A stretch of DNA of 24,648 nt from a virus (IMGVR_UViG_2684622670_000019:1-24648), one strand, 5' to 3'. Counted from the first letter of the stretch, positions 1,088 through 11,174 are shown. The notes: generated by a model from the letters alone, not told the origin. A program made the numbers and translations.

Positions 1088-1450
1088 ATGTTAAAGCTAT
1101 TTGCAAAGTACACCTCGATTGGTGTGCTAAACACACTTATACACTGGGTGGTTTTTGGTGTTTGTATCTATGCAGCGCATACAAATCAGGCTCTGGCAAA
1201 CTTCGCAGGTTTCGTTGTGGCAGTGAGCTTTAGCTTCTTCGCGAATGCAAAATTCACATTCAAAGCATCGGCTACAACGATGCGCTACATGTTATACGTC
1301 ACGTTCATGGGAGCGCTTAGCGCTGCTGTTGGATGGGCTGCTGATAGATGCGCACTTCCCCCAATCATTACTCTTATTACCTCCTCCGCCATCAGCCTGG
1401 TGTGCGGTTTCGTCTATTCAAGGTTAATTGTCTTTAGGGGTGCGAAATGA
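1088..1450 (+). CDS. gtrA: GtrA, bactoprenol-linked glucose translocase (flippase), O-antigen conversion
   Basis: 120-aa small multi-TM protein ([24 protein letters not shown]...) matching GtrA of Shigella/Salmonella serotype-converting phages from memory; first gene of a three-gene operon with ATGA overlap to gtrB. Confidence 0.85.
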
Positions 1451-2370
1451 AGATATCTCTTGTAGTTCCTGTCTTCAATGAAGAAGAGGCGATACCAATT
1501 TTTTATAAAACGGTACGTGAATTCGAAGAGTTGAAGCCATATGAAGTAGAAATTGTTTTTATAAATGATGGTAGCAAAGACGCTACTGAGTCAATTATTA
1601 ATGCTCTGGCTGTTTCAGATCCTCTAGTTATTCCTTTGTCATTTACTCGCAACTTTGGTAAAGAACCAGCATTGTTTGCAGGGTTAGACCATGCTACTGG
1701 AGATGCCGTGATTCCAATTGATGTTGACCTGCAAGACCCGATTGAGGTTATTCCTCATCTTATTGAAAACTGGCAGGCTGGCGCCGATATGGTGCTGGCA
1801 AAGCGTTCAGACCGCTCTACAGATGGGCGTCTGAAGCGCAAGACAGCAGAGTGGTTTTATAAGCTTCACAATAAGATCAGCAATCCGAAGCTCGAGGAAA
1901 ATGTTGGCGATTTCCGGCTGATGTCCCGCGATGTAGTGGATAATATTAAGCTTATGCCAGAACGCAATCTTTTCATGAAAGGCATTCTTAGTTGGGTTGG
2001 TGGGTCTACAGATGTAGTTGAGTATGTCCGTGCTGAGCGGATAGCCGGCAGCACGAAATTCAATGGGTGGAAATTATGGAACCTCGCACTTGAAGGTATA
2101 ACAAGTTTCTCCACTTTCCCTCTGCGTATGTGGACTTATATTGGGCTATTCGTAGCTGGAATGGCTCTTTTATATGGCACATGGATGATTATCGACACCT
2201 TGGTGTTTGGAAATCCGGTTCGCGGTTACCCATCACTTATGGTGTCCATTCTCTTCTTAGGCGGAATTCAGCTTATAGGAATTGGCGTACTTGGTGAATA
2301 TATAGGAAGAATTTACATAGAGTGCAAAGCTAGACCTAGATTTATTATCAAGAGAATGAAAAATGAATAA
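1447..2370 (+). CDS. gtrB: GtrB, bactoprenol glucosyltransferase (GT2 family)
   Basis: 307 aa; N-terminal GT2 signature ([10 protein letters not shown]...INDGSKD...IDVDLQDP) and C-terminal TM helices; translationally coupled to gtrA and gtrC. Confidence 0.88.
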
Positions 2371-3793
2371 AACAATCAAAATCAACTTCTACATACTATT
2401 TATTATTTTGTTTTTTATTATAACATGTAATATTTACTACTATGATGATGTATTTAGATCGTATTGGGGATATTATGGTTGGTCTGAAGATGGAAGGCCT
2501 TTTGCAGATTTATTCTATAAATTATTTATTTTCTTTAGATCTGAAAGCATACCAGATATTTACCCGCTACCACTAATTTTAACGTCTGTGCTTCTTGTTA
2601 TATCACTAACAAATGCATTGCAAAATATACTATCAAAAGATGGGGTTATAGTTAATATAACTTTTGCAATATTTATGCTTAACCCTTTTCTTTTGTCTAA
2701 TATGCTATTTAGATATGATGGTGCATTTATGATTTTATCTATTGCACTTTCGGCTATTCCGTTCATTTTTACAAAAAGTAGAACATTCGCCATATCATCA
2801 CTACTGTGCCTAACAATATCGCTTGGATTGTATCAAGCCTCAATAAATGTGTACATTGGGCTTGCATCAGTAGTGGTTGCAATGGAAGCATTGAAAGGGG
2901 AAAAGTTTACATCAATAGCCAGCAGAGTGCTATTATCTGTTACATGCGTAGTCTCTTCATATGTTATATACTCAAAATTAATACTTGAATCATTATCTTT
3001 AAATAATAACTTCTCGAAATATGCTCAAATAGTTGAATTAAATAAAGGAGGAGTCATCAATGTTTATGAGAATATAATTAACGCAGTTAAAAAAATTGAT
3101 GTTGCTCTTCATAGTGGTATTGGAACACCTCTTTATATATTTTTATCAATAATAGCCATATCATCTGTGTGTGTTGCCATTAAACGAAAACAATTTCAGT
3201 TACTATTTTTTATTGCTATATCTATTTTGGGTTGTTTCTTTTCTTCTTTTGGTGTGTCTGTCTTTGGGAAATCGCCAGTATTTGTGTCAAGGATATTTAT
3301 CGGATTTGGTGTTTTTATAATGGCAGTTCCTTTGATTGGCTCAGCACTTCTTAATTGGAAACTTAATTACTTACTATCATTATTCATTGCAATTCCTATG
3401 CTGTCCATCTTTTTTGCCACCATTAATGCCTCAAGAGAGGAATTTAAATTCCAAAACAATTTATCACTTCAAATGATTAATGATATTAATCATAGCAAAG
3501 CTAAATATCTCGACTTTGTTGTTATTGATGGCTATGCGAAGAACTCTTCTGTTGCAAGCATAAATAAGAAAATATTTCCCGTAATATCTGATATATTGCC
3601 TCCTGTCTTTACAAATAGATATGATGGTGGGGTTTTCACATTGATGAGAAATGGACTAAAAGATGTTGTTAGTGCTGAGTCATCAGCTGCAGACAACGCG
3701 GTATCAATATCAGATGATGGAAATCTAATTTCTGACAATAATATATATAGCATTCATGCGACCAAAGATATTATTGTAATAAAATTAAAATAA
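2363..3793 (+). CDS. gtrC: GtrC-type serotype-specific O-antigen glucosyltransferase (polytopic membrane protein)
   Basis: 476 aa, many TM segments, extremely AT-rich; third position of the gtr operon, overlapping the gtrB stop by 8 nt. Family members are highly divergent, so the call is by position and topology. Confidence 0.7.
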
Positions 3794-3857: not shown

Positions 3858-5921
3858 CTAAGAAAAAATCCAATTACCATACATTCCAGTTATTTCACTA
3901 TACATGCCTTCTTTATTTTTTAATTTAATCCAAGCGCCGAATTCAGTGGTGGCTACTTGCGTTACTTCTGAAGAGTTACTTACAAACCTTATATTTGCTA
4001 CACCTATTGCTCTACTTGGTGATGAGATTGTCATAGCTCTTATTATTTTTAACTCTCTGAAATCACCAGTGCTACTTGCGATTATATCAATATCATTAGT
4101 GCTATGGTTAAATATAATGGTGTTATTTAACAGCTTTGTATTTTGAAAAGATGTTATTGTGGCAATCCCTCCAATAAATCCTCTTATCTGGGCCGGGCCA
4201 GTATCTCCACTATCATAGGCTAATGATGTGGTTATATTATCTTCCTCCTTTCCTATATGTATATCAATAAAGTACTCTTTTAAACTAATACCAGCCAAAA
4301 CTAAAAATGTTGATATAGTCGATGTACATTTTTTAATAACCAGATTCTTAAAATTTCGAGATAACCCGATGCTTATTGGATCAATAGTTCTAGGTAATAA
4401 TCTGATTATTTTATCCCCACCTGCTATAGTAGTTTCATCAACAATTTCACCTATTTCCACAAAAAGGCGGTCATCCCCCAGCATTTCAAAAACACAAAAG
4501 TCTAAAGGAGACGTCTTAAATACCACTCTATCAATTAAGATTTTCCCTATACCATTTCCCATAACTCTAGTAGCTGTCACCCCTCTGTTAGTCACATTCG
4601 TTAGTGTTGTATTCCCCGAGATGATTACATCAGCTACAAGACTGTCAGGGAAAATATTAAGTTCCACACCAGTATACGCACCATTGATGTATGGGTTTGA
4701 GATTTCACAATTAATCAACCGAGGGACAGTGTGTCCAGGCACACTTTCGTCTGCCTCTGGTTCAATATCTATGCCAGATTTCGGCATAGCACCTGTAACA
4801 CCTCCGTAGTCACCAATATTATAAATCTCAGGATTAACTATTATTATATTTTCACCTGACGTTAGGCTTATACCGTTACGCCTGCATTGTTTGACGATCG
4901 GTTTTTCTATATAGATATTTTCTGGAACCGTGCCATCGGTAGTCCCCCACTTCATGCCTATATATATTCCGTCGCCAAACATGTTGGTATACAGTCCACC
5001 AATAATACGAATGTTAGAGGATTGAAGTATTGTAAGCCCCCATCCATGTTCTCCTTCGGATGTGTTTGTTAACCGATCACCTTCCAGTACAGGATTATAA
5101 ATATTTACATTTTTAACACCGTTTGCTATGTAAATGATATGGCTTTGTGGCCTGTTTTGATTTGCTAGTTTTAATGCCCCATCCTTCTCAAATCTTATAG
5201 TGCTATTATCTACGCATCTTAACACAGATTTAAAAGCATCATTTCCAGGGGAAAAAGGGTCTTCATTCACAGCCATCAAGCCTTCAAATGATTTATCTAT
5301 AATGAATTCTGCACCAATAGATGCTGCGGATTCATACGCTTTTTGTAGTGTTTGTGCGTCATTGCAAAAATCAGAAGCATAAATAGAGTTGGTTTTCTTT
5401 AATTCAAATATCCTACCATTTCTGCTCCTGATAATTAATATTCCATCTGGGGTGAGCGTGGGGGTGGATGATTCATAAACATATCGACCATGAATCATTA
5501 CATGATTAAATATATCTGGGACATCCTCTTGCTCTATATTAATAGCAACATATATAAGTTTATTACTTAACTCCCCCCTTAACTGATCAGGATCATACTT
5601 CAGCACATTAGGAAAATAGAACTGCTGCGCACCATACGCATCATATACAGCCATAGAATGGCCTTGCACAGTTACGAATTTAGCAATCTGTCCGTTATAT
5701 ACCGGATATCCAGCAGCGTTAATGATTATTGGTTGCGAAACAGGAACGTGAGAACCGTCTTCATTCTCCACATAAACCTGAATCTGGTTTTCAGGATTTA
5801 CTGGATCAGTGTCAATTTTACCGATATAAATTTTGCCATTGGCAACCGCTTTAAAAGAACGCGCCATAGTGAATAGTTGCGAAGGCATACTCACTACAAC
5901 ATTGGCTGTAATATCTGTCAT
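3858..5921 (-). CDS. Tailspike protein: P22-type N-terminal head-binding domain fused to a beta-helix receptor-binding (depolymerase) domain
   Basis: 687 aa; N-terminal ~110 aa ([11 protein letters not shown]...[32 protein letters not shown]...VLKYDPDQ) closely matches the P22/Sf6/HK620 tailspike head-binding domain from memory; the remainder is a repetitive beta-helix-like sequence. SD GGAG upstream of ATG 5921. Confidence 0.85.
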
Positions 5922-6053
5922 TTAATTTGCTCCAGATACAATGAATCGCCGCAGCGTAGCTACGGTTGGCGTTTGTTACATACCGAAACGGTACGATTGT
6001 TGATTTGTACAGTAGGTTTTACGATGCCATTCCACCCATTTGGTGAGGCATTG

Positions 6054-6311
6054 ATGATGTACAGCAAATACGATGAGGCGCAGTTCCACTTGAGGCTTAC
6101 GCACGAGTTGCACGCTAAGATTAAGCAGCGTGCAAAAATGAATAACAGGTCTATCAATTCCGAAATTGTGGCTACGATGGAAGAATCTCTCTCCAAACCA
6201 TCACCTGTAAGCGGGTATCGTGATGAAGAAGAGAGACTGGCCTCATTAATCTCGGAACGAGTAAAAGAAGTTGCGGCTGAAATTCTAAGGAAAGAAAAAA
6301 CCCGCGATTAA
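6054..6311 (+). CDS. Mnt-like ribbon-helix-helix repressor
   Basis: 85 aa from ATG 6054 (MMYSKYDEAQFHLRLTHELHAKIKQRAKMNNRSINSEIVATMEESLSKPSPVSGYRDEEERLA...) aligns with P22 Mnt (..FNFRMPMEVREKLKFRAEANGRSMNSELLQIVQDALSKPSPVTGYRNDAERLA..). The longer ORF-track start at 5877 is rejected. Confidence 0.75.
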   Translation: MMYSKYDEAQFHLRLTHELHAKIKQRAKMNNRSINSEIVATMEESLSKPSPVSGYRDEEERLASLISERVKEVAAEILRKEKTRD

Positions 6312-6326
6312 GCGGGTTTAGTTTTC
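6295..6326. terminator. Bidirectional intrinsic terminator between convergent mnt-like and KilAC antirepressor genes
   Basis: 7-bp stem aacccgc (6299-6305) / gcgggtt (6312-6318), flanked by AAAAAA (6295-6300) and TAGTTTT (6320-6325). Confidence 0.5.
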
Positions 6327-6337
6327 ATTATAAAATG

Positions 6338-7063
6338 TTACGCCACATTTGAGCCATGTAGCAGGTGTTGTAGTGCTTTAACGCCTTCAGAATTGTAGCG
6401 GAACGCCTCTACCTGTTTGCTGGAATGCGCCGATTTATCCAGGAAGAACTTCCCGTACTGCTCAGTTTTGAGGTTGTTTGCGTTAGCAATGCGACCAATC
6501 TTGTTGGCCGTTACTCCAAGCTGCTCTGCAACCTCCCCTGCTGAGTAGTAATGCTCTTCTATTGCCGGAAGAGGTATTGCATTAAAACCAACAAGCGGGT
6601 TGATTATACTTGCTGCCGCTGTCTGCTTTGCCTCCGGCGCAAGATTTGGCATCAGATCGAACAGATTGGTAACAGCTTCAACCGTCATTTTCAGTGTTCG
6701 CGCTTGACGATACTCAATAAGTCCACTCGCTGATTTACCGCTTTTAATGTGTGCTTCCTGCATACTTTCAAGTTTGTCTACAAGTGTTCGGCGAACTGCT
6801 TTAGATTCGCGAGCAGCAACACGAAGCGCCTGCTTGATAGTCATGGAGATAACATCAATGTCAGCCCCGTTTTTCCGACCTACACTTTTTGTGTAGGTCT
6901 CGCCCTCCAATTCATCCTCAATTTTCTCGATGAATTTGTTGTTACGTACTGATGGCTCTCCACATAACTTGCGAGCTTCATTAACCATCATCAGAAGGCT
7001 TTGGCTGTCAATGGTTTTATCCGTGACAACGGATCCGATGTTTGCTACATTCTTCAAAGTCAT
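6338..7063 (-). CDS. Antirepressor-like protein with C-terminal KilAC/ANT-type domain
   Basis: 242 aa from ATG 7063 with SD AAGGA 7 nt upstream; C-terminal region (YSAGEVAEQLGVTANKIGRIANANNL...) resembles the phage antirepressor KilAC domain; sits in the ant position of a P22 immI-like operon. Confidence 0.6.
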   Translation of the reverse strand: MTLKNVANIGSVVTDKTIDSQSLLMMVNEARKLCGEPSVRNNKFIEKIEDELEGETYTKSVGRKNGADIDVISMTIKQALRVAARESKAVRRTLVDKLESMQEAHIKSGKSASGLIEYRQARTLKMTVEAVTNLFDLMPNLAPEAKQTAAASIINPLVGFNAIPLPAIEEHYYSAGEVAEQLGVTANKIGRIANANNLKTEQYGKFFLDKSAHSSKQVEAFRYNSEGVKALQHLLHGSNVA

Positions 7064-7100
7064 TAGGCATTCCTTATGTGGTAGTAAGGGTGTGACATAG

Positions 7101-7132
7101 GCCGCCAGCAGCACACTGGCGGTTTTCTTTTT
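7101..7132 (+). terminator. Intrinsic terminator in antisense orientation between the two antirepressor genes
   Basis: Stem ccgccag (7102-7108) / ctggcgg (7116-7122), 7-nt loop, then TTTTCTTTTT (7123-7132) on the plus strand although both flanking genes are on the minus strand. Confidence 0.55.
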
Positions 7133-7151: not shown

Positions 7152-7778
7152 TCAATGAATCCATTCCTCGCCGCGCAGTTTTGTCAGCATTGGCTGAGCG
7201 TTCTTTACGACAAAATTGTTGGTATCAAGATTCTTCATTTCACGAAGAAGTGATTTCTTGGTTTCTTCTGACATATAGCGAGTCTCATATGCAATATCGT
7301 AAATTCTTCCTGAAAGCTCAGAACCAATTTGCTTCATTCCTGGGTAGATGTGTTTGCACATTTGTTGACTCTTCTCCATCCACAATTGTAAGTAGCAGAG
7401 ATTAACCAGTTCTTCGTCAGTAAACTGTTTTGCAATCGGTGAGCATTCTGCCTGCCGATCCAAAATATCCAGCACCCAGCGGCGGAACTCTTTTGCTACA
7501 GGAGTGCGAGCAAACATCGCGATTAGGTGGGCACCGCGTAGTGAGAAAACTCGCACTTTTTTGCGATAATTTCCTGAGGTACTCACTTCGAGTACCTGAG
7601 TCATTCCGGCGCTAAACTCATCGCCATACTTGTTATAAATCATTGTTACTGCACGACTATTTGCGTATTTAAGTGCAGATGCAATATTAGATGATGTAAA
7701 CCAAACACCATGCATATCACGGGTGGGCACCAACTCAACTCCGTGGAAGTTGTAATCTGATTTTGCTACAATATTCAT
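7152..7778 (-). CDS. Antirepressor-like protein with N-terminal Bro-N/AntA-type domain
   Basis: About 208 aa from ATG 7778 with SD AAGGAA upstream; N-terminal half (NFHGVELVPTRDMHGVWFTSSNIASALKY...LIAMFARTPVAKEFRRWVLDIL) fits the Bro-N/AntA fold pattern; immediately downstream of the Arc-like gene. The TTG start at 7883 from the ORF track is rejected. Confidence 0.6.
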   Translation of the reverse strand: MNIVAKSDYNFHGVELVPTRDMHGVWFTSSNIASALKYANSRAVTMIYNKYGDEFSAGMTQVLEVSTSGNYRKKVRVFSLRGAHLIAMFARTPVAKEFRRWVLDILDRQAECSPIAKQFTDEELVNLCYLQLWMEKSQQMCKHIYPGMKQIGSELSGRIYDIAYETRYMSEETKKSLLREMKNLDTNNFVVKNAQPMLTKLRGEEWIH

Positions 7779-7851
7779 GTTAGTTTCCTTGCATACGGTT
7801 ACTGACATAGAGGCCCGGTTTGTGTTCGCGCACTGCCGGGCTTCGCTATTT

Positions 7852-8025
7852 TTATTGGATGACAACATCGCCCTTTGCCTCAAGTTTCATCAATAACTCC
7901 ATTCGATAAGCTATCTCTGCCTGAATTGACCTATGGCATCTTTTTGCTGATTCGCGGATATGTGAATCAACCTTTTCTGTAAAACGAACCTGACGCGGCT
8001 TGATGGAAGATATCTTTTCAGTCAT
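7852..8025 (-). CDS. Arc-like ribbon-helix-helix repressor (57 aa, below the ORF-track cutoff)
   Basis: MTEKISSIKPRQVRFTEKVDSHIRESAKRCHRSIQAEIAYRMELLMKLEAKGDVVIQ aligns with P22 Arc (PQFNLRWPREVLDLVRKVAEENGRSVNSEIYQRVMESFKKEGRIGA); SD AGGAG 7 nt upstream of ATG 8025; first gene of the minus-strand operon. Confidence 0.7.
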   Translation of the reverse strand: MTEKISSIKPRQVRFTEKVDSHIRESAKRCHRSIQAEIAYRMELLMKLEAKGDVVIQ

Positions 8026-8074
8026 TATGCACTCCTGTTTTTGAAAAACTCATAATCTCACTTTTTGTAGTTTG

Positions 8075-8103
8075 ATTATTCACTCACACTCAGTATGAGT
8101 CAA
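8075..8103 (-). promoter_or_regulatory. Sigma70-type promoter for the arc-ant operon (Pant analogue) with embedded candidate operator
   Basis: On the minus strand TTGACT (8103-8098), 17-nt spacer, AATAAT (8080-8075); the spacer contains the inverted repeat ACTCA-gta-TGAGT (8088-8100) and a further ACTCA copy at 8082-8086. Confidence 0.5.
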
Positions 8104-8124
8104 TGAATTTTTTATGGTGAACTA

Positions 8125-8766
8125 ATGAATTTTGACGATCAATTCCCATCAAGAGTATCTCTGGCAAGACAGTCCAGGGGTATGACGCAGGCGCAGTTGT
8201 CAAAATTAGCTGGTGTTGTTCAACGTCAAATAGCTGCATACGAGGGTGGTGAGGCTAAACCACGGCTTCGTGTATTGCAGGCATTAGCCAACGCATTAGG
8301 TACTACGGCTGAGTGGTTAGCTCTGGGTGAAGGTCAGGGTCCGGGAACAAAAAACGTCATGCCTGACGTTCTGGTAAAGCAAATACCAATCCTCAAACTA
8401 GATGAAGTTATGCATTACCTAAACACAGGTGAACATTCATCGTCTAGATTTCATCCGGCAATATACAATGTTGGTGACTCTGCATTTGCATTGACTATTG
8501 AAGGTGAAGCTATGACTACAAGTTCAGGCATTAGCTTTCCCAGAGGATCAGTTGTCACGTTCAGCCCTCTAGTAAAAGCTAAAAGCAAAGATTATGTAAT
8601 AGCATCATTGGATAAAGAGCAAATATTGAGCTTCAAACAGGTTTACATTGGTGAAATAGAGACAAACCTAGTATCCCTAAACCCAATGTATCCTAATATT
8701 CTTGTTAGAAATGAAGATGTTAGTATTTTGGCAACCGCAGTTTACCTTGAAATCCCGTTGCTTTGA
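8125..8766 (+). CDS. Lambda-CI-fold repressor (N-terminal XRE HTH, C-terminal S24 LexA-like domain) with catalytic Ser replaced by Ala; predicted non-cleavable
   Basis: 213 aa; HTH (MTQAQLSKLAGVVQRQIAAYEGGEAKP); C-terminal domain aligns with the lambda CI C-terminal domain (VGDSAFALTIEGEAM versus ASDSAFWLEVEGNSM; SFKQV versus TFKKL; LNPMYP versus LNPQYP). Divergent from the arc-like operon, in the P22 mnt position. Confidence 0.75.
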   Translation: MNFDDQFPSRVSLARQSRGMTQAQLSKLAGVVQRQIAAYEGGEAKPRLRVLQALANALGTTAEWLALGEGQGPGTKNVMPDVLVKQIPILKLDEVMHYLNTGEHSSSRFHPAIYNVGDSAFALTIEGEAMTTSSGISFPRGSVVTFSPLVKAKSKDYVIASLDKEQILSFKQVYIGEIETNLVSLNPMYPNILVRNEDVSILATAVYLEIPLL

Positions 8767-8826: not shown

Positions 8827-9054
8827 GTGAAGCGATGGTTCCTCATAATTACTGTTTTCGCGATCATTTACACTATTTTCCCTGCATTAAAAGCACCAAT
8901 GCAAATAATTTCACTAGCAATAATTGCGATTGGTGCTTTCATTGCAGTAGCCGTACTTGTGTTTAAGGTTTTAAAGTTTTTAGTTTGGCTATCAAAAGAT
9001 GATGGATGCAAAGTTCATCAAGAAAAAGAAGGCAAAATAACCAAAGTTGACTAA
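8827..9054 (+). CDS. Small two-TM membrane protein; candidate superinfection-exclusion or abortive-infection effector
   Basis: 75 aa; strong SD TAAGGAGG 5 nt upstream of GTG 8827; two hydrophobic helices (FLIITVFAIIYTIF, IISLAIIAIGAFIAVAVLVF) and a charged C-terminus; AT-rich; directly downstream of and co-oriented with the CI-like repressor; no recognisable homologue. Confidence 0.55.
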   Translation: MKRWFLIITVFAIIYTIFPALKAPMQIISLAIIAIGAFIAVAVLVFKVLKFLVWLSKDDGCKVHQEKEGKITKVD

Positions 9055-11174
9055 CTGTCACTAGCGAGCCATGTAATAATCCCCGTGCGGGCAATGGTTT
9101 TTGCTTCATCTGTTGATAAGGTTTTCTCCCATCTCTTAAATGCCCCAGATTGCATCAGTTTCCTTTCTATTACGCGTCTCACTTCTGCTCTGTCTACTGG
9201 TGCGTTTTGCAGGCGAAATAGCATTGATTTAAACTCAGGAGAAGACAGTAGAGCATCAGCAGCCTTTATCCTGCTTGTTTTCCCTGACATCAATGCGGAC
9301 GTTATCACCCCTGTTGCACCTACACCAGGAAGACCAGATAAGCTTGTAATACCTTCCGCCGCAGCAGCTTTTGAGGCTATTCCATAAATTTTTGCGAGAC
9401 TACCCTTTTCTTTCAGAAAGTTATTAACTTGCTGATCCACAAGGCTACTAGCATACTGCTTACCAGTATTGAGTCTATTCATAGACTTAGCTGCTTGATA
9501 AATCGTATCAAGGCGCTTTGATGCATCTGTGCCAATAGCATCACGGAGAGCCTTCATATTGGCCCCATTGCGTGACATTCCGTTATACCATTTTACAAAT
9601 CCATCAACTCCTAATTGCTGGCCAGGTGATTTGGCATAGCTGGTAAATGCTTTATTCATTGAGGTGAGCGCAACTTCCTGCCGCATATCCTTTGGAATTG
9701 ACTTCATTAATTGCCTAAAGTCACCACCGTTTCCTTTTGCCATATTAACAACAGCACTTTCAACTTTTGGAATTGCTGATTGCTGAAGTTTTCTACCCAA
9801 GACGGTTACAGCATCATCTTCAATGGATTTTCGTTTTTTTACCAACTCCTTACCAAGCGTCCATAACTCCCCTGCGCCATATTTTTCTGCGACAGCCTGT
9901 TGGTCATCTGTTATAGCTGCATATAACTTTTTAAGAACACCTGTTTCTTCATCCTTGAATGGACCAGAGCCTTTGCCAATAGCTTGCCCCACCTGCTTTC
10001 TAGCGAGATCTAAACGCCCATACGTTGGCAAGGTGTTTGGATCAAGTCGGTTCAATGTCCGCTTCATTATTGGAGATAATTCATCAATTCCACCTATGTC
10101 ATCAGCAAAATCCTCTAAAAAATTCAATGTATTAGTTGCCTCAATACGGTCTCTTACTGGAACCTTTTCGGCAATTTTGTTGTAGATGTTATCTGACTGA
10201 TTTTGTAATGATGAAATGGTTTTATCAAAATTATCTGCAAGCCTGTCAGAAACCAGTTGCTTATCAAGGCTTCCCCCAAATGAAGTTATCATTTCATCAG
10301 CTTTTCTTCCTAATTCAGTAATAAAACGCTTATGCGCCTCACTAATCTCTGTTCCAGGGAGACTTGCCACTGCATTATCAAGAGCCCTGACAGCGGGATT
10401 ATTAGAGATCATGCCTGGAGTGGCATAATTTTCCAGTTCTAGCTCACGAATAGCATTTATCGCGTTAAAATCAGGATTAACTTCATCGGCGAAATCTTGA
10501 ATAGCTCGTTGCCCGCCGATAAATTTATTGTCCATTGCGCCAGCAGCTTTCTTTAACGTTGCTTTAGATGATTTACTACCCATCCCTACGGATGAGCGAT
10601 AAATATCTCCGGCACTATTTTTAATTTTTCCTGCAATCTTCCCAAGCGCTGGGCCAACAATCTCTGCTACAGGGCCAGCCACAGCGCCAATAGCAGCGCC
10701 GGAAGCAACATCGCTATTTGTTCCATTGGCTACAATAGCCCCTTCTCCAGCACCAAGCCCTGCGGCGGCAGCCAGCCTTGCCGCCCCTTTCGGAACCTGA
10801 GAAATAATCCCACCACCACTAACAAATGGTGCTGCTTGTCCAACGAACTCACCAACATCTTGTGCGGTTGATGGTTTTGCCGCTAACTTCTGCTGTAGAG
10901 ACTGAATTGCGGCTTGCTCTTCTGGTGTCATATCCTGAAACAGGCCAACACCTTTACCAACATCCATCAATCCACTGAGAACGCCATACATAAAACGGTC
11001 GAAACCGTTGGCTTTATTAACAACATTTTCCTGTCTGGAATTTTCCTCTGGTGAAACCAAAGGTGATTGCTGCTGTTCTGGTTGGGCATCAAGCACAAAA
11101 CCATCAGGAAGCTGTGAGTTATCAGGCTGATTATCGAGAACAAAGCCTTCGGGTAAACCTACATCGGTTGCCAT
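9051..11174 (-). CDS. Ejection (E) protein, P22 gp16-like
   Basis: 707 aa, Gly/Ala-rich; last gene of the gp7-gp20-gp16 ejection-protein block by conserved P22-like gene order. Confidence 0.7.

Follow-up and report, generated by a model that had tools for sequence, protein, structure and literature searches.

The window analyzed here is a stretch of viral DNA of 24,648 nucleotides (IMGVR_UViG_2684622670_000019) that constitutes a P22-like prophage, and our subject is a gene on its plus strand that encodes a CI-like repressor, together with the antirepressor genes next to it. The gene is an open reading frame (ORF) of 213 codons at positions 8125 to 8766, whose ATG lies a few bases 3′ of a Shine-Dalgarno-like GGTGA and whose product has 213 amino acids. 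Across a control region of 99 bp (8026 to 8124) it diverges from an operon on the minus strand that begins with a gene for a small ribbon-helix-helix (RHH) protein and continues with the gene for the antirepressor Ant. An initial annotation of the same DNA had proposed that the CI-like protein retains the S24 fold of lambda CI and LexA without the means to cleave itself, and that it has taken over the role that Mnt plays in P22.

An S24-like domain without its catalytic serine

The ORF, Pfam, alignments with lambda CI, an AlphaFold2 model and Foldseek together describe a protein made of an HTH_3 domain, a linker and an S24-like domain. The N-terminal HTH_3 domain (residues 14 to 65, E 9e-13, above the curated Pfam cutoff; 8164 to 8319, plus strand) also matches the 434 repressor (E 4e-6); in the family alignment, the recognition helix G-V-V-Q-R-Q-I-A-A-Y-E is almost invariant, residue 33 excepted. 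Peptidase_S24 (PF00717) is found at residues 108 to 206 (E 1.3e-12; 47.9 bits against a cutoff of 23.3). The AlphaFold2 model has a mean predicted local distance difference test score of 86.5 and places five helices in the N-terminal part (7–18, 22–29, 33–41, 48–57 and 62–67). Its best match in the PDB, as found by Foldseek, is the lambda repressor, followed by LexA and UmuD′, and the modeled C-terminal domain superposes on that of lambda CI at 1.8 Å over 98 columns (TM score 0.84). Pfam and the superposition thus agree with the initial annotation on the fold.

Four concordant comparisons locate the catalytic positions. In HMMER comparisons with the solved lambda CI chains, LEVEGNSMT falls opposite LTIEGEAMT and TFKKL opposite SFKQV, the catalytic Lys being pinned down among the lambda CI structures by the K192A entry 2hnf (TFAKL). 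MAFFT with lambda CI, P22 C2 and E. coli LexA gives identical columns; BLASTP against the canonical C2 of phage JEP4 sets KGDSMT opposite EGEAMT and TFKKL opposite SFKQV; and the fourth comparison, the superposition of the AlphaFold2 model, is the structure-based one. All four put Ala129 (codon GCT, 8509 to 8511, plus strand) at the position of the nucleophile, opposite lambda Ser149, LexA Ser119 and the C2 Ser, while the general base is retained as Lys171 (codon AAA, 8635 to 8637, plus strand), opposite lambda Lys192 and LexA Lys156. The claim that Ala replaces the Ser of the G-x-S-M motif while the partner Lys is kept therefore stands, also in the structure-based alignment with lambda CI that had been named as a check, and none of the alignments placed a Ser at this position. 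The Ala codon is one base away from the TCT Ser codon of a relative, P0003.

The linker was likewise said to have no scissile Ala-Gly bond, which agrees with the aligned segment. Alignments, predicted secondary structure and the positions of Ala-Gly identify residues 86 to 100 (IPILKLDEVMHYLNT; 8380 to 8424, plus strand) as homologous to the cleavage-site region of LexA and CI. Opposite the V-x-A-G of lambda, P22 and LexA, the CI-like protein reads K-L-D-E-V-M; this segment holds no Ala-Gly, the only one in the protein being residues 29 and 30, within the helix-turn-helix (HTH). In the AlphaFold2 model the segment forms a strand (86–90) and then a helix (92–101). For LexA, the S119A replacement is reported to abolish self-cleavage altogether, both the alkaline and the RecA-mediated reaction (PMC4980697). 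Judging from these alignments, the CI-like protein very probably does not cleave itself, and with neither a nucleophile nor a scissile bond it should be blind to RecA and the SOS response.

The Ala state is common to several clusters at 71 to 99% identity (P0001, with 62 member sequences, P0002, P0004 and P0005). A search of 5426 complete E. coli genomes finds the gene at ≥99% identity in 28 of them, and tblastn detects the protein at about 100% identity on 24 IMG/VR contigs. A sequencing error or a pseudogene had also been considered, and is ruled out by this recurrence in contigs and genomes and by the purifying selection described below.

How widely the cleavage equipment has been kept was read from homologs collected by a sequence search followed by a profile search, whose genomic surroundings were fetched as well. 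The sample comprises 120 representatives, namely, the window and 119 clusters. Only 4 of the 120 (P0016 and P0025 among them) combine Ser, Lys and Ala-Gly; 75 have Ser and Lys without Ala-Gly, 10 have only the Ser, 8 (including the clade of the window) have only the Lys, and 23 have neither. Most of the 75 members with an intact dyad read V-Q-A and then Arg, Lys, Ser, Ala, Ile or another residue (for example, V-Q-A-Arg and V-Q-A-Lys in P0014 and P0023). Their dyad may be retained for structural reasons or may serve cleavage at an unconventional Ala-X bond, which is a possibility where V-Q-A is followed by a residue other than Gly. On a neighbor-joining tree, parsimony counts at least nine changes at the Ser column and eight at the Lys column. 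In the clade of the window, the two deepest branches (P0005 and P0004) have Ala, and the nested P0003 (81% identity) has Ser (TCT versus GCT), a mixed pattern that looks like relaxed selection on catalysis. By this reconstruction the Ser has been replaced at least nine times independently and the self-cleavage equipment is largely lost throughout the family, the change to Ala being one state within a family-wide decay of catalysis.

The domain itself is not decaying. Two Ala-bearing alleles separated by a synonymous divergence (dS) of 0.15 show zero nonsynonymous changes over the C-terminal residues 106 to 213, and two Ala-bearing proteins of 71% identity differ in this domain at a proportion of nonsynonymous sites (pN) of 0.20 against a proportion of synonymous sites (pS) of 0.79; pN and pS are given because synonymous sites are saturated in the pairs of 71 to 81% identity, for which dN/dS proper is not computable. 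The C-terminal domain of the Ala clade is under strong purifying selection. By analogy with lambda CI and LexA, the S24 fold would be kept for something other than cutting, with dimerization as the obvious candidate; from fold homology and the selection result, we infer that the protein dimerizes through this domain.

Judged by these alignments, the protein shares the fold and architecture of lambda CI and P22 C2 but has neither the Ser nucleophile nor the Ala-Gly bond that define an S24 autopeptidase, and it should be described as an S24-fold pseudo-peptidase repressor rather than as an S24 peptidase. Current labels vary: in RefSeq, the E. coli copies go by “helix-turn-helix domain-containing protein” alone, and many relatives are labeled “LexA family protein.” A separate feature of the family alignment is an extra C-terminal tail of about 50 to 70 residues (columns ∼285 to 363; P0012 to P0021 and most members of 260 to 300 amino acids), which ends in a conserved amphipathic stretch such as ERLSALENRLDEIMHLIR and is absent from the clade of the window and from that of P0007. 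It could be an additional oligomerization helix.

A mobile cassette of repressor, RHH protein, and antirepressor

The cassette consists of the CI-like gene, the 99-bp control region, the RHH gene, ant and a second gene of an antirepressor family. In the window, the RHH gene (7852 to 8025, minus strand; phrog_10182, E 2e-36) is the first of the ant operon, encodes an Arc-like protein of 57 amino acids and starts 99 bp from the start of the CI-like gene; its Pfam matches to ParD_like and Arc are below threshold (E 0.011 for Arc). Ant (7152 to 7781, minus strand) has the Bro-N and P22_AR_C domains in Pfam and matches the PHROG anti-repressor Ant at E 1e-53. The last gene of the operon (6338 to 7063, minus strand; 241 amino acids) belongs to another antirepressor family (phrog_1726, E 2e-100), which follows Ant in many loci. 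The short gap from the stop of ant (7152) to the start of this gene (7063) contains a GC-rich 10-bp stem-loop (7099 to 7125) that scores as a terminator on the plus strand only, antisense to the operon; it might attenuate read-through or stabilize the mRNA.

The same arrangement recurs wherever the family is found. In all distinct loci, an ORF of about 57 amino acids starts on the opposite strand 86 to 100 bp upstream of the CI-like gene, mostly at exactly 97 to 100 bp. A C-terminal KGE..IQ motif is conserved among these small proteins, which make up a single family whose profile matches, in the PDB, Arc (E 1.3e-4), AmrZ (3e-4), CopG and Mnt. They are members of the Arc RHH superfamily at the profile level only, which does not imply orthology with Arc. 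Of the “arc-ant promoter” that the initial annotation placed beside the CI-like gene, the divergent RHH-ant operon thus holds, while the name Arc applies at the level of the superfamily profile. The pairing is complete: in 55 of the 55 distinct loci with enough upstream sequence, the CI-like gene diverges from the RHH gene, which is followed by at least one and often two Ant-family genes drawn from the Bro-N/P22_AR_C, P22_AR_N, pRha and phrog_1726 families.

The genomes around this unit differ widely. It is found in P22-like ant morons (the window, JEP4 and E. coli HS), in lambda-like tail clusters between the tape-measure/minor-tail genes and the tail-tip genes (L002 and L009), at a prophage end beside the integrase (L004 to L006), in a phage with both a tailspike and a tape measure (L008), and in a prophage with a primary repressor of its own carrying Phage_CI_repr and S24 domains (L007). 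The repressor/RHH/Ant unit is thus a self-contained mobile cassette and not a local modification of the immI region of P22. Since the CI-like gene travels with the ant operon through such different genomes, its product is most simply explained as the regulator of that operon.

Among isolated phages, the GenBank phage set yields just two with a member of the family. In JEP4, the CI-like protein is 100% identical to that of the window, and the surrounding region is 98.8% identical in DNA. JEP4 also has a separate, canonical P22-type C2 in immC, with VSAG, GDSM and FKKL, and therefore SOS induction of this phage does not need the CI-like protein. The deposited JEP4 gene (JEP4_14; L001 12458–13027, MT740315) starts at an internal TTG equivalent to position 8197 of the window, which drops the first 24 residues and with them part of the HTH, and its product is named “repressor protein C2,” exactly as is the true C2 in immC. 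The CI-like gene is also present in the prophage of E. coli HS, where an IS3-family element sits inside the second antirepressor-family gene and leaves a truncated pseudogene (L082 1911–3712, NC_009800); the CI-like gene, the RHH gene and ant are intact there. For the ant moron of HS-1, Villafane et al. noted that ant is present but arc is not, which calls for “a mechanism ... that differs from P22” (PMC2629481). The CI-like cassette is a concrete candidate for this differing control mechanism of the E. coli HS moron. Our literature searches turned up no account of a CI-type repressor that is protease-dead and dedicated to an RHH-ant cassette, and nothing specific on the JEP4 gene.

Within the window, the CI-like gene belongs to the variable stretch bounded by the gene in the position of gp16 and the tailspike gene, a region named “ant moron” by Villafane et al. 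(PMC2629481). Along the late operon (minus strand), the order is a 707-amino-acid ORF, a gene for a membrane protein of 75 amino acids (plus strand), the CI-like gene (plus strand), the control region, the RHH gene and ant, followed by the second antirepressor-family gene, a bidirectional terminator-like stem-loop (6298 to 6319), a Mnt homolog (plus strand) and the tailspike gene. The window further has the ejection-protein genes gp20 and gp7, preceded by the 707-amino-acid ORF (9051 to 11174), which occupies the gp16 position and has no Pfam match; portal and terminase genes are also present, as are gtrABC (1088 to 3793) and a tailspike gene with a P22 head-binding domain (3858 to 5921, minus strand). 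The CI-like gene, opposite to the late operon and divergent from the RHH-ant operon, does occupy the position of mnt in P22, as had been proposed. Just 3′ of it and in the same orientation, the gene for the predicted 75-amino-acid membrane protein (8827 to 9054, plus strand; phrog_7294) overlaps with its stop the stop of the convergent 707-amino-acid ORF by a few bases; in E. coli HS its slot is filled by a different gene of 212 amino acids. It looks like exchangeable moron cargo and is possibly expressed from the prophage along with the repressor.

Proposed control of the ant promoter and competing explanations

The best σ70 match of the control region is a predicted promoter that reads into the RHH gene (8075 to 8103, minus strand), with −35 TTGACT (8103–8098), a 17-bp spacer and −10 AATAAT (8080–8075), 10 of 12 positions agreeing in the promoter scan. 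Aligned intergenic regions show that both hexamers are conserved in position across related loci. A dyad scan over 24 nonredundant aligned control regions, in which each pair of positions was scored for complementarity, found the strongest symmetry between 8094–8098 and 8100–8104 (z = 5.0; family consensus aTTGAGTCAAt). In the window, this is the 11-bp dyad TATGA-G-TCAAT (8094 to 8104, centered on 8099), which overlaps the −35 hexamer and which we take as the candidate operator of the CI-like protein. It is also the best-conserved element of the control region. Base 8098 covaries with residue 33, the first exposed position of the recognition helix: with kinship ignored, all 12 distinct loci with Arg have T, and of the 31 with Gln, His, Pro, Ser, Thr or Ala, 24 have A. 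The base is independent of the β-strand class of the RHH protein, since KQISYRP and KPMAYRM each occur with both bases. This pattern points to the CI-like protein, rather than the RHH protein, as the probable binder of the dyad, and a protein bound at the −35 hexamer would be placed to repress.

A further inverted repeat, ATAATCTCACT/AGTTTGATTAT (8052–8062 and 8069–8079, detected by a repeat search), spans the −10 element and the transcription start of the ant promoter (8052 to 8079) and would, by analogy with Arc autoregulation, be an operator of the RHH protein. Elsewhere in the window, ATGAGTCAAT has a single site with one mismatch, at 1586, which is not above chance. Control by the host LexA was considered and set aside: the sole CTGT-N8 match in the control region (CTGTTTTTGAAAAACT) has, by eye, a poor right half. 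A −35 element at 8095–8100 for the CI-like gene was also rejected, as transcription would then start after the ATG.

The same moron holds, outside the cassette, a Mnt homolog: an ORF at 6054 to 6311 (plus strand) for an RHH protein of 85 amino acids, which falls into Arc-like PHROG families and is annotated as “regulatory protein mnt” in JEP4 and as “Arc family DNA-binding protein” in E. coli HS. In its C-terminal half (SKPSPVSGYR...) the protein resembles P22 Mnt. The gene diverges from the tailspike gene and converges on the ant operon, from which the terminator-like stem-loop separates it. Its upstream region (5922 to 6053) contains two palindromes, CGTAGCTACG (5955–5964) and TACCGAAACGGTA (5981–5993), that occur nowhere else in the window, neither being statistically unusual alone. 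An operator shared between the Mnt homolog and the ant promoter was rejected, the palindromes being absent from the ant control region. JEP4, E. coli HS and Salmonella phage VSe13 show the same adjacency of mnt and tailspike genes, and the Mnt homolog may act on its own promoter or on transcription into the tailspike gene. The proposal that a CI-type protein has taken over the role of Mnt accordingly needs to be divided: map position and predicted function agree with it, and a simple swap does not, since a true Mnt homolog is still there.

Taken together, we consider it likely, on balance, that the CI-like protein is an SOS-blind, dedicated lock on the antirepressor cassette, which acts as a dimer on the dyad in the ant −35 element. 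A dimer joined by the S24-like domains would bind the 11-bp site over the −35 hexamer, and the stable repressor would keep Ant silent in the lysogen, which is the job of Mnt in P22. The RHH protein, in the role of Arc, would limit the burst of Ant or shut the operon down after infection; Ant would act on C2-type repressors, and the phage's own C2, encoded elsewhere, would stay the SOS-cleavable switch.

Several observations weigh against this reading. At 11 bp, the dyad is short to be bound by an HTH dimer, and as it falls on a −35 hexamer, conservation would be expected there anyway. The link between residue 33 and base 8098 ignores phylogeny and does not hold in a group of seven loci, in which Gln goes with T. 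For the CI-like gene, neither scan nor inspection yielded a convincing −35/−10 pair upstream of 8125, and its own promoter was not located. The Mnt homolog could in principle regulate the ant promoter. Finally, 75 of the 120 representatives keep Ser and Lys without Ala-Gly; an activity such as Ala-X cleavage may persist in these relatives, and “dimerization only” may understate the role of the domain.

It is conceivable that the CI-like protein is still inducible by a route other than self-cleavage, be it through an Ant-family protein of the cassette or the antirepressor of another phage, through trans-cleavage by an active S24 protein, through Lon or ClpXP, or through sequestration, uncut, by a RecA filament. 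The S24-like domain and Lys171 are strongly conserved, the second Ant-family gene is nearly always in the cassette, and antirepressors acting on noncognate repressors are documented (PMC3121763). We nevertheless regard such a route as unlikely: the sequence points to no specific alternative trigger, the segment available for trans-cleavage lacks Ala-Gly, and a stable, noninducible repressor suffices, as P22 Mnt illustrates. A little less likely still would be that the Mnt homolog is the real maintenance repressor of ant and that the CI-like protein has another job, for example, signal-responsive activation of the operon or immunity against other phages. This would account for a bona fide Mnt homolog in the same moron, and phage modules in which a transcription factor activates a neighboring inducer gene are known (PMC10432266). 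However, the homolog is convergent with the ant operon behind a terminator, its two upstream palindromes are unique in the window, and the cassette also occurs without a linked mnt (L002, L004 and L009), whereas the CI-like gene accompanies the ant promoter in 55 of 55 loci, and the best candidate site for its product is on the −35 hexamer, a position suited to repression.

That the change from Ser to Ala marks a decaying gene, a functionless remnant in a fast-changing moron, is very improbable. The ant moron does turn over quickly and hold degraded genes (PMC2629481), and the IS3 element in E. coli HS disrupts the neighboring second ant gene, but the reading frame of the CI-like gene is intact in every copy, the Ala state persists over lineages of 71 to 99% identity in different phage types, and the selection result, with its lack of C-terminal replacements between close alleles and its pN far below pS at 71% identity, largely refutes decay. 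A more speculative idea, to which we give little weight, is that the cassette family forms a natural series from SOS-coupled to SOS-uncoupled antirepressor switches, and that in the uncoupled members, that of the window among them, the conserved but dead S24 domain has been repurposed as a sensor or docking module. Such a domain might bind RecA filaments without being cut, the second Ant-family protein, or a ligand; if so, a signal other than SOS would govern the release of Ant and thereby the induction of resident prophages.

Prophage induction is usually ascribed to a self-cleaving CI-type repressor or to an antirepressor controlled by LexA. Under the dedicated-lock reading, an antirepressor cassette would have taken on a CI-type protein as its private lock, and the self-cleavage equipment of that protein would then have been lost, repeatedly and independently. 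The analysis also delimits a repressor/RHH/Ant module that is portable from one phage type to another, and the family offers natural S24 variants (Ser, Ala or Gly; Lys or Arg; with or without Ala-Gly) for probing a fold that does not cut. For annotation, “repressor protein C2” and “LexA family protein” would wrongly imply a second SOS-inducible immunity repressor.

Comparison with known systems

With lambda CI, P22 C2 and the 434 repressor, the CI-like protein shares the two-domain architecture of HTH_3 and S24 and the Lys of the catalytic dyad, being 26% identical to a P22-type C2 over 201 residues. It differs from them in having Ala for Ser, in lacking Ala-Gly and in a cleavage segment that is predicted to be helical. 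Its gene lies in the ant moron of the late operon and not in immC, and its partner is the RHH-ant operon instead of cro. The likeness to P22 Mnt is one of map position, since each gene lies between gene 16 and the ant genes, runs against the late operon and diverges from an RHH-ant operon, and of predicted function, namely, SOS-independent repression of ant. In fold the two are unrelated, an HTH and S24 protein standing against the RHH tetramer of Mnt; moreover, the CI-like cassette also occurs outside P22-like phages, and the window has a true Mnt homolog in addition. Compared with the whole immI region of P22 (mnt-arc-ant), ant is present but the divergent gene encodes an HTH and S24 protein, not an RHH protein, and the RHH protein of the window corresponds to Arc by position and size, with a Pfam match that is subthreshold (E 0.011).

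A member of the S24 family without these cleavage features has a precedent in the LexA of Synechocystis sp. PCC 6803 (sll1626), which lacks both the Ala-Gly and the Ser and is a non-SOS transcriptional regulator (PMC1524924). In contrast to the CI-like protein, which is a phage HTH_3 protein tied to antirepressor genes, it is a chromosomal winged-helix LexA orthologue that acts on host genes. Similar in logic are the antirepressors that are held under an S24-family repressor, namely, Gifsy GfoA/GfhA, 186 Tum and N15 AntC under LexA and Fels-1 FsoA under a CI-like repressor (PMC3121763). There, as proposed here, an antirepressor is silenced by an S24-family repressor away from the main immunity region. 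However, in those modules the repressor is cleavable and the SOS response frees the antirepressor, whereas the repressor of the window is without the means of self-cleavage.

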